A stretch of 64,000 nt of DNA, from assembly GCA_963693055.1 (NCBI GenBank), contig OY843751.1, positions 5,088,001 through 5,152,000 of the forward strand. Direction: 5' to 3'. Positions 55,902 through 64,000 of this stretch are shown here, one piece after another. The DNA comes from a bacterium (GTDB lineage: Bacteria; Zhuqueibacterota; Zhuqueibacteria; Residuimicrobiales; Krinioviventaceae). How positions within the stretch are numbered: position 1 is the stretch's first letter; every line of letters begins with the position of its first letter. Both the position numbers and the translations under genes were made by a program. A model generated the notes under the pieces. It saw only the letters and a list, made by a program, of their open reading frames with translations. It ran no database searches and was not told where the DNA came from.

Positions 55902-56432
55902 ATGGTGGAACCCGATATGGAAGCAAATCACAAAGAAGCTTTTAACAACCGCATCGTTTTTTCTGAAAAGACTTATCAAAACATTATCAGCATTTTAACT
56001 GAACTGCGCACACGCCTCAATGCCAAAATCACTATTTTTGCGGATATGAACGGGTATCCCATCGGATATGATGAAACAGTACCCGCAATTGACATTACCT
56101 CACTAACGGCTCTTGCATCTGGTACATTTTCAGCAACATCCGAAATGGCAAAAATGGTACAGGAACAAGATAAATTTCGCTTTATCTATCTTGAAGGTAA
56201 AGAGAATAATATTTACATGTGTAATGTTAGTAAAGATTACCTGATCATTGTCTTGTTCGACAAGAGTGTAGCTATGGGTATGGTAAGAATACTGACCCAC
56301 AATACAGTTGAAAAACTGTCAAAAATATTGGATGAGTTGTCAATGGAGAATCAGCAGGCATCCAAATACATAGACATAGAATTTAAATCTATGCTTAATA
56401 AAGAATTGGATAAATTTTTCGGAATTGACTAG
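55902..56432 (+). CDS. mglB: Roadblock/LC7 protein, MglB-like
   Basis: DITSLTALASGTFSATSEMAK, VLFDKSVAMGMVR. Directly upstream of mglA. Confidence 0.85.
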   Translation: MVEPDMEANHKEAFNNRIVFSEKTYQNIISILTELRTRLNAKITIFADMNGYPIGYDETVPAIDITSLTALASGTFSATSEMAKMVQEQDKFRFIYLEGKENNIYMCNVSKDYLIIVLFDKSVAMGMVRILTHNTVEKLSKILDELSMENQQASKYIDIEFKSMLNKELDKFFGID

Positions 56433-56438
56433 TTTTAT

Positions 56439-57011
56439 ATGTATATAGATCAAAACAGACAAGAAATACAGTTCAAAATTGTATATTATGGGCCGGGTTT
56501 GGGTGGCAAAACAACAAACCTGGAATATATCCATGCCAATATTGATCCCTCAATTCGTGGTGAACTGGTTAGCCTGAAAACCAAGGACGAGCGCACGCTC
56601 TATTTTGACTTCATGCAGCTTGAACTGGGACAAATCAACAACAAAAAACCACGCTTTCATCTTTATACAATCCCCGGACAGTTGCATTACAGCTTTAGCC
56701 GCAAAATCATTTTGCGTGGCACAGACGCTGTGGTCTTTGTTGCGGACTCTCAACCGCTTCGAATGGATGACAATCTAGACACCCTGCTTGACCTGGAACA
56801 AAAGCTGATTGAACAGGGCGCCTCACTCGATTCTTTTCCATGGGTTATGCAATACAACAAAAGAGATCTCACCAATTCCATGAGTATTGATGAAATGCAG
56901 TCTAAACTTAATTTTTTAAACGTTCCCTATCACCAGGCCATTGCAACAAAGGGAAACGGAGTTTTTGAAACCCTGAAAACAGCCATCCAACTGGTTATTG
57001 AAAAAATGTAG
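56439..57011 (+). CDS. mglA: MglA-family small GTPase
   Basis: KIVYYGPGLGGKTTN, ERTLYFD, TIPGQ, NKRD. Confidence 0.95.
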   Translation: MYIDQNRQEIQFKIVYYGPGLGGKTTNLEYIHANIDPSIRGELVSLKTKDERTLYFDFMQLELGQINNKKPRFHLYTIPGQLHYSFSRKIILRGTDAVVFVADSQPLRMDDNLDTLLDLEQKLIEQGASLDSFPWVMQYNKRDLTNSMSIDEMQSKLNFLNVPYHQAIATKGNGVFETLKTAIQLVIEKM

Positions 57012-57019
57012 AGGAAAAC

Positions 57020-57454
57020 ATGCCAGGCTTTCCCAAAAACGGAAAAAACACACCGCACCATCACCAGAACAACTCGATACAAGTTAAAATAGAAACCATA
57101 CTAACCAATCTGGTTAATAGCGGCCTTTACGATGCCATCTATTTGTTTGACGAAACCGGTTTGCCCATCGTTCAGCGTAAAAAGAACCAAGCCTTTAGTA
57201 ATGATATTGAGACTGTTGAAGTTACCACGTTAATGAATCAGATCAAATCTTCAACAACACGTATAGAAGAATTTGAAAAATTGAACGAGATCATTATTGA
57301 AAGCAGTACCGGTAAAAGGCTCATTTTTAGATTTATTGACTTTTTTGGACAAACTGCAACACTGGTTGCTATTATTCCCCAGGGAAAAAGCTATAGAAAT
57401 ATGACCAACAATCTGCTGCGCACTCTTGACCGTCTAACTGAATCGGAATTGTAG
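57020..57454 (+). CDS. Divergent roadblock/longin-like protein
   Basis: AIYLFDETGLPI and LNEIIIE pattern, located after mglA. Confidence 0.55.
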   Translation: MPGFPKNGKNTPHHHQNNSIQVKIETILTNLVNSGLYDAIYLFDETGLPIVQRKKNQAFSNDIETVEVTTLMNQIKSSTTRIEEFEKLNEIIIESSTGKRLIFRFIDFFGQTATLVAIIPQGKSYRNMTNNLLRTLDRLTESEL

Positions 57455-58822: not shown

Positions 58823-59095
58823 GTGACTATGGACAAAAAAAGTACAAAACCAAACACAGCCAAAAAGTCGAATAAAACCTTTTTGGATTTTTCAGCCCGC
58901 AACTATCAAATATTCGGTGTTGCGTTGGTTGTTATCGTTTTGGGTTATTTTGCAATGGCCCAACCCCCTGCGGAAGGTGCTATGTCTTTGACAGTTGCGC
59001 CCATTCTGCTGGTCATTGGTTACTGTATTTTGATTCCTTTGTCTATTTTCTGGCGCCCTAAAAAGCAAGCCAGTGCCACAACAATGGGCGATTAG
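58823..59095 (+). CDS. DUF3098-like small membrane protein
   Basis: NYQIF...LGYFAM...SLTVAPILLVIGY. Confidence 0.75.
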   Translation: MTMDKKSTKPNTAKKSNKTFLDFSARNYQIFGVALVVIVLGYFAMAQPPAEGAMSLTVAPILLVIGYCILIPLSIFWRPKKQASATTMGD

Positions 59096-59160
59096 CTCAG
59101 TTGGTCTAGAGCACCTGCCTTACAAGCAGGGGGTCGCTGGTTCGACTCCAGCATCGCCCA
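59086..59160 (+). tRNA. tRNA-Val(TAC)
   Basis: GGGCGAT acceptor stem, CCTGC-CTTACAA-GCAGG anticodon arm, GTTCGAC T loop. Confidence 0.96.
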
Positions 59161-59241
59161 CAGCCGCAAGGCACATCAAGATAAAAGATTTTTATTGCAT
59201 CTTGATAAAAAAAGCACTAAGTTGTTAGTGCAAACCCAAAC

Positions 59242-59315
59242 GGGGTCGTGGTGCAGATGGTTAGCACATCGGCCTGTCAAGCCGAAGGTCGCGGGTTCAA
59301 GTCCCGTCGGCCCCG
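59242..59315 (+). tRNA. tRNA-Asp(GTC)
   Basis: GGGGTCG/CGGCCCC acceptor stem, TCGGC-CTGTCAA-GCCGA anticodon arm, GTTCAAG T loop. Confidence 0.96.
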
Positions 59316-60065
59316 CAAAAAGCCTCAGAATTTTTCTGGGGCTTTTTTGTTTTCAGGGGATATAATATAGAGGTCATTCTGATTTCAATTTGAGACTTGC
59401 CCCGCAAAAAGCCTCAGAAATTTTCTGGAACTTTTTTGTTTTTAGGGGATATATTGCAATGGCCGTCCCGATTCCACTTCGGGGTTGGTACCTGATAATT
59501 ACATCTAAATTCATTCAAGGTCTTTTATCAAATCAATTGGGGGTAAATATGGGGAAAACAGATCAATTTTTCGTTTATGTTTTAAAAAATCCATTCGGGA
59601 AGTTCTATGTGGGGCAAACTCAAAATCTTGAAGAACGATTAAACAGACATAACTGTGGCCAATCCACATACACAAAAAACAGAGGCCCTTGGGAATTAGT
59701 TTATTATGAACCTGTAGAATCCCGATCAGCAGCTATGCAAAGAGAAAAAGAAATCAAGAATAAAAAAAGCGCAAAATATATACAATGGTTAATCGATAGT
59801 CAAAATATCTAACCTTATCTAACCGTGGTCGTCCCGAATTCACTTCGGGATCGGCCCCGCAAAAAGCCTCAGAATTTTTCTGGGGCTTTTTTGTTTTCAG
59901 GGGATATAATATAGAGGTCATTCTGATTTCAATTTGAGACTTGCCCCGCAAAAAGCCTCAGAATTTTTCTGGGGCTTTTTTGTTTCTAGAGGGGTGTATT
60001 GCCGAGGTCATCCCGAATTCACTTCGGGATCGTCTACGCAAGAAGCCTCTGAAATTCTTCAGGGG
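59307..60065 (+). repeat. Array of ~89-bp units derived from the tRNA-Asp 3' end plus terminator
   Basis: CCCCGCAAAAAGCCTCAGAA at 59311, 59400, 59855, 59944, degenerate at 60034 and 62306. Confidence 0.9.
59549..59812 (+). CDS. Stand-alone GIY-YIG nuclease
   Basis: FVYVLK...FYVGQT..LEERLNRHN...YTKNRGPWELVYYE...AMQREKEIK. Confidence 0.93.
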   Translation: MGKTDQFFVYVLKNPFGKFYVGQTQNLEERLNRHNCGQSTYTKNRGPWELVYYEPVESRSAAMQREKEIKNKKSAKYIQWLIDSQNI

Positions 60066-60370
60066 ATTACCATGTAGAACGAAATTTATTTCGTTTACCC
60101 GGCGCAGATGGACCCGGCAGGACGCGACTTGACGAATCATTTATCGTTATTAGCAGGCGAGCCCTCATGATAAAATAGTGCCAACCTGCAAAGCCCCCAG
60201 AGTATTCGAAATGAGAGTTGAATGGTATAATCAGAGTTGTAATGGAGACAATCTCTCACAGTAACAGTTTACAAGGTCAATTCAATCCTGTAATCCTTTA
60301 ATCATACAAATCATAACTCAAACAAAAAAGCGTCGAGTACTGCATGGTTAGCAGAAGACTGGTGCTTCAT
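60034..60370 (+). repeat. ~330-bp non-coding element, copy 1
   Basis: Colinear with 62306-62634, e.g. GACCCGGCAGGACGCGACTTGACG, CCTCATGATAAAATAG, AACCTGCAAAGCCCCC. Confidence 0.9.
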
Positions 60371-60408: not shown

Positions 60409-61104
60409 TCACTCGTTTTCAATTTTCGTAAAACAAATATCCTTAAACTCTAATTTTTCAACAATATTTTTAAAATTCTCTGTTACAATAATTGCAGTTG
60501 GCAATTCAACAATTCTAAAAACCTCTTCATCCAAAAGTTTTGGTGAAATACTAATTTTTATCTTATCCGGCATTGTGATAGGGATGCGTCCACATCTTTC
60601 ACACTTTTCAATAGGATAATCTAAAATTCTGGCTTTGGGGATTATCTGAAATTCATAATAATCAAAATCCCTTTTATCATTCATTACAATTTTCGTTTTA
60701 GCAACCTTAGGTAACTTTATATCCTCTTTTTTCAATAATTCATATGCATTATAACTTACCAGTAGCGTCCACGGATTAAGCCATGCAAAGTCATAGAACC
60801 TACCTTTTGCAATACCTTGTAAAGGACCAAATTTTGTTCCAGGCAAAACAAACATATCTTTAAATAAATTATCTGTAGTTGGTTTCATCTCATGATGTGT
60901 TTGCCATGGATAAGGCTTTCGAATTGAATAATACTCTTCATATTCAGCATATTCATTACTTAAAACAATATTTGGATATTGAATACCAGTAACGGCCCAT
61001 TTGCTTTTGCATATGTCACAAATCATACCGGGTATACTATATTTGTGAACAGCATCAATTAAATAACTTTTTGATTTGTCACATGAAATTTTATAAAAAC
61101 TCAT
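60409..61104 (-). CDS. Double-CXXCG-type (SitI6-like) immunity protein
   Basis: HKYSIPGMICDIC, QYP, PGTKFGPL, TLLV, CERCGR. Immediately downstream of the toxin. Confidence 0.75.
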   Translation of the reverse strand: MSFYKISCDKSKSYLIDAVHKYSIPGMICDICKSKWAVTGIQYPNIVLSNEYAEYEEYYSIRKPYPWQTHHEMKPTTDNLFKDMFVLPGTKFGPLQGIAKGRFYDFAWLNPWTLLVSYNAYELLKKEDIKLPKVAKTKIVMNDKRDFDYYEFQIIPKARILDYPIEKCERCGRIPITMPDKIKISISPKLLDEEVFRIVELPTAIIVTENFKNIVEKLEFKDICFTKIENE

Positions 61105-61113
61105 ATTAACCTT

Positions 61114-62190
61114 TCAATATAAAATTTTGATATTAATTTGAGCTTGATTTAAATCAAAATCATACAACATCTTACCCAATTGTTTATAAATATCCTTGTC
61201 ATTAGCCATTGGATTTAAATCAAAAAAATCTTGCCATGCTTTATTCCAGTTTCCTCCTCGAGCTCCTCCTCCATGTATACCTGTTGAACCAATATAAACT
61301 CTTCTTGGGAGTGGCATTATATAATCATGTATATCTATTCCTTGTTCTACAAACTTCTCAGCTAAATCTTGTCTTTGAGAGAAAATATGATGACCTTGAA
61401 TAGGCGTTGCTTCAATTGCTGTTGGATAATCATACGTAAATACACTAAAATCTTCATCAACTACATCATCTAAACCAAATCGTTGTGACCCTAACTCACG
61501 TCTTTGAAAAAAATCAGTGTTAGGTACCAAGTTTGACTGTAACATTTCCGGAGTATCAGCCAATCCACCAGTCCATGGATTATACCCCATATTTTTAGCA
61601 TACCTATAACCTCCAATACCACCAAAAAGGCCTCCACCGACTGCTCCCCCAATAAAACCTGCCCAAACATCCTGGCCGGAAAGCCCAGCTGTTAAGGCAC
61701 CAACCCCTCCACCAGTGGCTGCACCATATGCCAATCCTGGCAGGAACCCAGCGGGAGCGAATATTGAAGCAGCTGTACCTAAACCTCCACCTAAGGCCCC
61801 AATACCAACTGAAGAGAAAAAGCCCCCTACTCGAAATTATCAGAGTGGTTTATTGCATATGAAATGCCACCTGTTGCGCCACCAATTAGCGCACCTGCAA
61901 GAATTACTTGCCAAAACTCCCCATCCGGATCCACCATAATCAATGGATTATTGCCGCAATACACATACGGGCTGAATCCCTGTCCAGCGGGGTCAGGCAC
62001 AAACCAACGGCCAATCTCGGGATTATAGTATCTTGCTCCAAAGCCGCAGCGTAGCGGAGGTGCGCCTATGGAGTATAATAAAGTCCGATGTCTGAGTCAA
62101 GCTCTTTTTGTGAGAACTGGTAGCTGTTATCATCATTCCCCGAAGCGACCAGAGTTTCACCAAAGGGGGTGTAATCACGGGTCATATCTA
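61114..62190 (-). pseudogene. Orphan RHS core plus C-terminal toxin (DUF2380/SitA6-like), disrupted
   Basis: DYTPFG, KELD..GLYY/FGARYYNPEIGRW..PDP, PYVYCGNNP..VDPDG. 32-bp insertion, TAG at 61827-61829 and a frameshift. Tip HHIFSQ...GIDIH...IH.GG.WN.AW. Confidence 0.85.
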
Positions 62191-62305: not shown

Positions 62306-62634
62306 CCCCGCAAGAAGCCTCAGAAATTCTTCAGGGGATTGCCATGTAGAACGAAATTCATTTCGCTTGTTCAGCGCAGACTGACCCGGCAGGACGCGAC
62401 TTGACGCATCATTTATCTTTATTAGCAGACAGGCCTCATGATAAAATAGAGCTAACCTGCAAAGCCCCCAAAACATTCGAAATGGATAAAAGAGTTATAA
62501 TCAGAGTAGTGACGGAGATAATCTCCCCCATGATCAGTTTTACAAGATCATTTCAATCCTTTAATCCAACAAATCTTAATTCAGACAAAAAAAACGCCGG
62601 GTACTGCGTGGTTAGCAGTGAAACGGCGCTTAAT
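62306..62634 (+). repeat. ~330-bp non-coding element, copy 2
   Basis: Colinear with 60034-60370, begins with CCCCGCAAGAAGCCTCAGAA. Confidence 0.9.
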
Positions 62635-63245: not shown

Positions 63246-64000
63246 ATGCAATCCTTTCCTGATAATTTGCACGTCCCTTTGAATCATGACCTATCGATAA
63301 AGCATAGTACATTTGTAATATAAAATTTGGAAAAAAAGAATTATTAAAAGCTCGTGAGGTCCATAGATGATGAAGTTCATGTTTCCAATAATTAGTTCCA
63401 GGAGCTTCATTAATAACACTAAAAGCTCCAAAGCCTCTACCATTTATACTTTTTATTGTACCACCTGTATAATAAGGTGTTAAATGATTCTTATCAAATC
63501 CCCATTCCCCCTTACCAAAGAATTTATTTCCAATACCTAATGCATTAATAGCAATATTTCCAATATTATTTTCAGCTTGCAATAAGCGCTGATTTTTACC
63601 AAATGTAAAATTAACTGGGCCAACTCCAATAGTATATTTTGAAAATAGATCTCTTCCTGCAGCCCAATTATTCCCAACGGAACTACCTGCGGTTGCTAAA
63701 CCTTGATATCCAAGTCTCCCCCAGAATCCCTTTTTAACCATACCAAATCCACCGGTAATATTAAAAGCACCAGAAGCAGCTCCAGTAATACCAAACTTCC
63801 AAAGATCACCACCATTTGCACCTGATGAATAAGCCATAGCCATATTAACATTAGCACCATTGACAATACTCGATGTTATACCCCAACTCGTTGTTGCAGC
63901 AACTTGTGGAGTTCCAACCCCAGTAGCAATGGCTGAGGGATATAAAGGAACAGCAATCATAGAACCAATTCCTGCTCCAATAAAACCACCTGTAATAGCT
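63220..64000 (-). CDS. C-terminal part of a probable RHS-type polymorphic toxin (5' end outside window)
   Basis: Gly/Ala-rich hydrophobic linker like the neighbouring module, HELHH (HExxH) near the C-terminus. RHS core itself not visible. Confidence 0.6.
   Translation of the reverse strand, partial: AITGGFIGAGIGSMIAVPLYPSAIATGVGTPQVAATTSWGITSSIVNGANVNMAMAYSSGANGGDLWKFGITGAASGAFNITGGFGMVKKGFWGRLGYQGLATAGSSVGNNWAAGRDLFSKYTIGVGPVNFTFGKNQRLLQAENNIGNIAINALGIGNKFFGKGEWGFDKNHLTPYYTGGTIKSINGRGFGAFSVINEAPGTNYWKHELHHLWTSRAFNNSFFPNFILQMYYALSIGHDSKGRANYQERIAYGKNPWKL

Follow-up and report, generated by a model that had tools for sequence, protein, structure and literature searches.

The nearest studied family to the element described here is Ssn (cd10448), which consists of single-domain GIY-YIG proteins of ~90 aa flanked by short hairpins (NTS/SRM). 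SsnA acts on single-stranded DNA (ssDNA) only, binds its own hairpin and cuts a few bases upstream, and the hairpin-gene-hairpin arrangement is likened by the authors to an insertion sequence (Chenal et al. 2025, PMC11893778, accessible parts). Proteins with an SLX1-like domain are given there as a sister clade, sparsely characterised in bacteria (PMC11893778, supplement 5). The term tRNA occurs 0 times in the main text of that paper and, in 12 of its 14 supplements, only in descriptions of host genes. SegB of phages T4 and T6 is a free-standing GIY-YIG homing endonuclease, found beside tRNA genes of many types, where it drives tandem tRNA-gene amplification via recombination (PMC13096335, accessible parts). 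It cuts double-stranded DNA, and no hairpin swap is described in the accessible text of the two reports (PMC13096335, PMC2330249). In the REPtrons (RAYT with REP) and the IS200/IS605 elements a small enzyme gene is accompanied by cognate short hairpins, with gene-less copies through the genome, and RAYT is an HUH tyrosine transposase that performs covalent strand transfer (PMC3733652, accessible parts). For UPF0213-type proteins, the part of a 2006 survey that was accessible gives methyltransferase neighbours, not tRNA genes (PMC1564403).

The class of elements represented by our locus pairs a small enzyme with hairpins as Ssn/SRM and the REPtrons do, and is tied to tRNA as SegB is; by the features tested, it fails to qualify for any of these systems. 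Unlike Ssn, the protein lies outside the SRM-type clade, and its hairpins are embedded in tRNA copies and carry no fixed tag. In contrast to SegB, the gene is chromosomal and encodes no more than the catalytic domain, and the tRNAs are broken in the copies. SegB-type homing endonucleases have a DNA-binding part beyond the catalytic domain, and this extra part is absent from the 87-aa single-domain protein. In contrast to the REPtrons, the present protein is a GIY-YIG hydrolase (Pfam and fold), and its hairpins replace stem-loops in tRNA copies. As in integrase islands at tRNA 3' ends (attL/attR), the 3' part of the tRNA is duplicated, the tRNA itself stays whole and a circle could form between the repeats; the array, however, has no integrase, its duplicate has a swapped arm and is not perfect through the T arm, and layouts at the 5' side exist.

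The array was found within the window (the whole 64,000-nucleotide stretch analysed, to which the coordinates below refer), with all its features on the plus strand. It lies at the 3' side of the only tRNA-Asp gene of the genome, an intact tRNA-Asp(GTC) at 59242-59316 that is the target of the element, while the upstream neighbour tRNA-Val(TAC) (59086-59161) is unduplicated. The order is tRNA-Asp, terminator, units 1 and 2, the GIY-YIG gene, and units 3, 4 and 5. The five units, all derived from the tRNA-Asp 3' end, start at 59368, 59457, 59823, 59912 and 60002 (spacings of 89, 366, 89 and 90 nt), unit 1 beginning 89 nt after the 3' end of tRNA-Asp itself. The left copy of the direct repeat (59307-59419; tRNA 3' end, terminator and unit 1) is identical to the right copy (59851-59963) over 113 nt, with 0 mismatches, at a distance of 544 nt, and cannot be extended. 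The 89-90 bp array and the exact repeat around the gene, as reported in the first-pass annotation, are confirmed. The intrinsic terminator of the tRNA operon (59317-59347) is recopied at 59861-59891 and 59950-59980.

The perfect hairpin TCCCGAATTCACTTCGGGA is present twice, in unit 3 (59832-59850) and in unit 5 (60011-60029), and degenerate versions are located at 59377-59395, 59466-59484 and 59921-59939, so that hairpins are found on both flanks of the gene (59466-59484 and 59832-59850). Unit 1 (59372-59436) consists of GGTCA, a decayed hairpin, the tRNA end and a decayed terminator. In unit 2 (59461-59484), GGCCG is followed by a near-intact hairpin, and the tRNA end and terminator are lost, which corrects the first description. 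The gene (59549-59812, 87 aa) is preceded by a GGGGG ribosome site at 59539-59543. Unit 3, proximal to the gene (59827-59891), is made of GGTCG, the perfect hairpin, the tRNA end and the terminator. Here the 19-nt hairpin stands in for the 15-nt inner T arm (C to G; 59292-59306 in the intact gene), with GGTCG and TCGGCCCCG retained. Unit 4 (59916-59980) is a copy of unit 1 with an intact terminator, and unit 5 (60006-60039) comprises GGTCA, the perfect hairpin and a decayed tRNA end. The fold of unit 3 has a z-score of -5.7 (0 of 200 shuffles equally good), whereas for units 1 and 2 shuffled sequences do equally well (+0.2 and +0.3). The Rfam scan passed only the two tRNAs and scored no unit as a tRNA, and the Tandem Repeats Finder run missed the array. 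No promoter was found for the gene in the promoter scan, in which the TATAAT of the unit tails failed (2 sites against 3.7 expected by chance). Among the sequencing runs listed as holders of the locus, none is of RNA.

An assembly artefact was considered as the source of the duplication and rejected on the contigs of three short-read runs, all of a single sample that may be the source sample. Within the repeat lies a 97-nt contig that each run covers to about double the depth seen in its neighbours (19.4 vs 9.9, 25.9 vs 14.1, and 10 vs 4.8), and a contig of 491-494 nt runs through the gene and joins units 1 and 3; the whole array is spanned by no single piece.

The tail of unit 5 is at the same time the head of an Rhs-cassette spacer (60037-60345) that recurs at five more places of the genome; this head resembles the tRNA end plus terminator. 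The spacer copies are ~81-84% alike and are located at 62309-62607 of the window and at four other genome places. From 60037 to the end of the window at 64000, and on to about 5161300 of the contig, an orphan Rhs-type cassette array runs on the minus strand, with a SitA6-like tip (61114-61734) and SitI6 immunity (60409-61104); every cassette is preceded by a 300-nt spacer with the head like the tRNA-Asp end and terminator, and IS256- and IS5-like ORFs occur farther along (labels by eye). Two Rhs loci without tRNA-Asp (1540121-1540492 and, on the minus strand, 2233820-2234241) show the terminator, a hairpin unit and the spacer, and both continue into the same upstream stretch; all three were likely carried along there by recombination between Rhs loci. 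At 55902-57454, upstream of the MFS gene, two roadblock-like ORFs and one for an MglA-like small GTPase were recognised by eye.

The 87-aa protein matches PF01541 at residues 7-77 (E 1.8e-18) and has no further domain. Residues Y10, Y20, E66 and K70 are invariant among 66 homologues; both motif tyrosines and the metal-binding glutamate are intact and correspond, by motif position, to Y6, Y17 and E64 of SsnA. The predicted structure (pLDDT 83.8) has UPF0213 and Slx1 as the closest folds, and the best sequence match (E 1.2e-8) and best fold match (E 2.1e-4) are likewise UPF0213/Slx1-like (PDB 1ZG2, 1YWL). The TIGR01453 score is 23.8 bits against a cut-off of 56, and NCBIfam holds no model that separates the small GIY-YIG groups. 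In a tree of 74 rows (23 of 97 rows were omitted from the first tree as short or broken) the protein falls outside a nine-row Ssn-like clade (support 100/99, on a long branch). These nine rows, which have an NPxW tail and GTCA-tagged flanks, serve as a proxy for Ssn; we take them to be Ssn from the cd10448 tail together with the flanks of the clade. Matching the SRM consensus to the array hairpins requires 3 mismatches, but in none of 10 Ssn-like control loci was the exact pattern found either. The family is large: among 50%-identity representatives, 596 clusters match at E<=1e-10, and 9071 at the looser cut-off of E<=0.001, which takes in other small GIY-YIG groups as well.

Homologues were collected by two scans seeded with six short query peptides, mainly PWELVYYE. 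At 37 of 64 genome loci a tRNA is located within 300 nt, in every case on the strand of the gene and never on the opposite one (upstream in 25, downstream in 12; 14 anticodon classes), compared with 478 of 200000 random windows of the own genome (0.24%) for a same-strand tRNA. The metagenomes gave 80 loci, 66 of them non-redundant, with 35 same-strand tRNAs and 1 opposite. Pooling (151 non-redundant full-length genes from 211 loci, grouped by protein motifs, our own locus included) results in 75 of 124 homologues of the main group with a same-strand tRNA within 300 nt. Over the genome and metagenome loci with a tRNA, gene and tRNA are co-oriented at 72 of 73. Among control small GIY-YIG genes, 0 of 13 Ssn-like and 1 of 14 YhbQ-like are tRNA-linked, which sets the present class apart from the UPF0213/Slx1-like stand-alone proteins that give its best matches. 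(L063 is a spurious locus row, and L086 and L087 gave no match.) For the other 49 homologues of the main group no whole tRNA was detected at up to 300 nt, and 13 of these 49 are of a separate type flanked by inverted repeats, several in rRNA or RNase P genes.

One Ignavibacteria genome carries such genes at tRNA-Asp, Asn, Pro, Ser and Arg and at tmRNA, and another at tRNA-Val, Pro, Gly, Met and Ser; the Ssn-like genes of the same two genomes lie among GTCA-tagged repeats, with no tRNA. Near-identical paralogues at different tRNAs of one genome were not found, the best being 75.5% over 98 nt, and jumps between tRNA types are therefore old or rare. On the protein tree, tRNA type requires 31 changes against 55.7 +/- 1.9 when shuffled. 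For the 33 rows with a phylum, type requires 15 changes (23.0 shuffled) and phylum 17 (19.6 shuffled), on trees of 87 columns with many open forks and interrelated loci (L009, L127 and L201 are false rows of the layout and tree analysis). Tandem gene copies are present at L015, L036, L069, L127, L220 and L223, and several copies show frameshifts or stops, with decay and tandem junk. Among viral contigs no close relative was found (3 candidates, none confirmed), and the plasmid (1) and phage (5) records, at about 40-44% identity, are distant relatives only.

The subgroup flanked by inverted repeats (CCCCGCACC...GGTGCGGGG type; L025, L029, L046, L162, L165, L168, L171, L172, L177 and L187) is mostly from Patescibacteria and occupies rRNA, RNase P or intergenic sites, the RNA genes being taken as 16S, 23S and RNase P from reading the sequence by eye. 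A further small GIY-YIG subgroup (L231, L235, L038) is located just after tmRNA genes or their 3' ends and has other hairpins.

A hairpin-swapped tRNA copy is observed at 32 of the 49 tRNA-linked loci (31 once a false row is removed; L068 and the second L127 are the false rows of this count), compared with 1 of 49 in a control with tRNAs of other types; 17 of the 49 show no clean swap. Flanks of the homologues are thus enriched both in tRNA genes and in swapped copies, in agreement with the earlier description of a minimal module that is linked to tRNA and holds a small GIY-YIG gene. The unit is composed of the gene, a short tRNA-derived piece (median about 10 nt), the hairpin and the rest of the tRNA, always on the strand of the tRNA, and the functional tRNA stays whole. 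This design is shared by loci at many kinds of tRNA across a range of bacterial phyla. Two layouts exist: tRNA, gene, short piece, hairpin and tRNA 3' part (layout A), and its mirror, with tRNA 5' part, hairpin, short piece, gene and tRNA (layout B). The short flank is on the side of the gene in both (medians of 11 vs 31 nt in 29 loci, and 9 vs 27 nt in 9 loci). The hairpin takes the place of a whole anticodon arm, a T arm or half an arm, or of no segment at all, and D-loop insertions occur as well. Replacement of the T arm at the tRNA 3' end, as first proposed, therefore holds for the present locus and not as a rule.

The replaced segments have complementary ends in 37 of 41 cases (control mean 15.0, maximum 25 in 2000 draws) and C...G ends in 32 of 41 (control 4.5), the rows being non-independent and including five doubtful ones (mis-anchored L022, L030 and L191, and two ambiguous). 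After leaving out whole arms of 15 and 17 nt, C...G ends are found in 17 of 24. The stems belong to a few fixed families (TCCCGA, TYCGCC, TCCTTC, CCTGCC), and the loops vary. Likeness of the hairpin loop to the replaced loop is 46.6 against 33.3 +/- 3.1 over 17 groups; with four doubtful groups dropped it is 37.1 over 13 tRNA-site groups, against 25.0 (permuted), 29.1 (shuffled), 25.7 (reverse complement) and 27.8 in a fourth control. Protein tails proved uninformative as to the hairpin (13 of 158). What is new here is that the replaced segments have complementary ends, that the loops resemble the loop they replace, and that the protein lineage follows tRNA type more closely than host phylum.

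Within the present genome, the pattern CCCGA-N7-TCGGG occurs 12 times, compared with 2.3 at other spacings, and the second hairpin family 19 times (2.1). Gene-less cognate hairpins thus exist elsewhere in the genome, five copies of them inside another repeat. This CCTGAG...TATCGAAG repeat, unrelated to tRNA, has 30 genome matches (e.g. 278731 and 4400493), and its loop holds many different nested hairpins, both families of the tRNA units among them. A second small GIY-YIG gene, a paralogue with the same design (L092, 2551597-2553321), is found at a tRNA-fMet fragment, with a TTCGCC swap (TYCGCC family) and a truncated tandem copy, and adjoins an integrase at an island end. At 3672754-3673100, gene-less duplicates that carry a TCCGCC hairpin come after a tRNA-Pro.

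Genome G001, of the same genus, agrees to 99% with the present one as far as the end of the tRNA, and there it has a 22.5-kb island that encodes an integrase, a cytosine methylase and Vsr. The att repeat of G001 copies the tRNA 3' part perfectly and has no hairpin; the same terminator comes next, and then a single gene-less hairpin unit. The 55 kb of G001 that were covered contain no GIY-YIG match. A hairpin-free att repeat beside a hairpin unit indicates two different things at one site. The number of units therefore varies between relatives, with five in the present genome and one, gene-less, in G001. In 29 tRNA-Asp rows of relatives, the gene is found within 700 nt of tRNA-Asp in two (the present genome and G010) and the hairpin motif without the gene in three more; seven rows ended at contig ends. 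G001 also has a longer array at tRNA-fMet (L127). Between the hairpin unit and the Rhs spacer of G001 (C3:605300-637190; L126, L259) lie ~32 kb with no match in the present genome and, in the part examined, largely carbohydrate-use-like genes. Letters of the hairpin right arm are present at both ends of this stretch, so the site may have served loss or gain.

The array is best seen as a nuclease-plus-hairpin unit of a widespread kind, partly decayed and set in duplicated tRNA-gene sequence, and it is probably a minimal selfish element whose enzyme would bind the hairpin in ssDNA and nick beside it. By analogy with SsnA and NTS, the TCCCGA...TCGGGA hairpin would be the putative recognition site of the GIY-YIG enzyme, which is more likely than its being a shield. 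The nicks would be mended by host recombination or by template switching between the tRNA-like flanks, and this repair could add or remove tandem units, leave units without a gene, and place new hairpins at further stem-loops; the precedent of SegB suggests that units may be made and removed in this way. GIY-YIG enzymes are not known to have a strand-joining step, and every joining step would hence be borrowed from the host. The nuclease would drive the amplification, as the first-pass annotation proposed. The conserved tRNA arm beyond the hairpin may act as a homology handle by which the unit enters the corresponding tRNA of another genome with no need of an integrase, which fits the protein lineages that track tRNA type. 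The copy at tRNA-Asp keeps no more than 10 nt of tRNA on the 3' side of its hairpin and hence gives the impression of local amplification rather than of readiness to move between species. A hairpin might reach a new arm by template-switch copying at the stem base, or by the grafting of constant arms onto the target loop.

The nuclease could instead behave as a homing endonuclease that cuts the arms of intact tRNA genes, with the hairpin swap immunising the copies. The agreement of protein lineage with tRNA type is as expected for such an enzyme, the likeness of the loops could reflect a target that is read, and the tRNA-gene sequence that T4 SegB cuts is a T-arm motif (PMC2330249, accessible parts). 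An intact target remains beside the gene, however, so the carrier allele is not immune. Relatives have the swap at different arms of the same tRNA (the anticodon arm in G010 and G025, the T arm at the present locus) with the other arms intact, the hairpins occur also in repeats unrelated to tRNA, and the protein is a catalytic domain alone. We therefore regard this explanation as unlikely. The protection of the copies proposed initially is a poor fit for the same reasons, and in Ssn the hairpin is the binding site beside the cut (PMC11893778, accessible parts).

It is also rather improbable that each hairpin is newly written, the enzyme setting constant stem arms on a C:G-closed target and keeping part of its loop. 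The C...G ends, also without the whole arms, and the loop likeness above controls over 13 groups are in line with such grafting. At one Gly locus C-AACCTT-G has become TCCCGA-AACCTT-TCGGGA, and the loop at tRNA-Asp retains TTCA or TTCAA of the T loop. Against it, many loops have just 2-3 letters in common with the loop replaced, and in the five loci with hairpins at two arms the matching is better in 3, tied in 1 and worse in 1 (30 vs 23; a weak test). Selection for a loop read by the same protein would produce an equal pattern, and no chemistry for grafting is known.

A non-selfish device kept by the host, be it a tRNA read-through RNA that serves as decoy or regulator or a nuclease for repair that is stationed at tRNA genes, would account for the co-orientation with tRNA, the anticodon letters retained in several hairpin loops and the fold nearest to Slx1 and UPF0213 proteins. 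The patchy presence, decay, broken frames and tandem junk speak against it, as do the units at tRNA-Asp, which lack the 5' acceptor strand and are situated behind terminators, and we find it very unlikely. Finally, that the units are att scars of integrase islands, with the gene as cargo, is hardly credible and largely refuted already for the hairpin units: tRNA-Asp is a real integrase site in G001, the downstream Rhs cassettes each begin with a tRNA-end-like remnant and the fMet paralogue sits at an island end, but the nearest of seven integrase (PF00589) matches in the genome is about 780 kb from the array, the G001 att repeat lies beside the hairpin unit rather than replacing it, and the mirror layouts duplicate the tRNA 5' part.

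Returning to the proposed selfish nuclease-plus-hairpin unit, in the literature searched, mostly outside subscription journals, no description of hairpin-swapped tRNA copies beside small GIY-YIG genes was found, and the class is apparently undescribed there. A broader reading, which we offer tentatively and hold to be doubtful, is that of an element class free of integrase and transposase, in which a GIY-YIG protein of 80-90 aa would rewrite ssDNA stem-loops, a constant stem replacing a C:G-closed arm with part of the loop kept, and tRNA arms would act as homing handles across phyla. If true, each tRNA type would be served by a separate lineage of enzymes, and thousands of tiny hairpin-addressed tools for ssDNA would exist. 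The junction rules (C...G ends, the ~10-nt flank on the side of the gene, loop likeness, lineages by tRNA type) make the birth and spread of hairpins testable with oligos and a very small protein.

In general, the results suggest a likely role for a very large unannotated group, the sparsely characterised sister clade of Ssn. Pseudo-tRNAs and odd tRNA calls next to the tRNA genes of Bacteroidota, Ignavibacteriota, Patescibacteria and other groups would find an explanation in such elements, which would also show that a plain nuclease unable to join strands can behave as a mobile element with site specificity.
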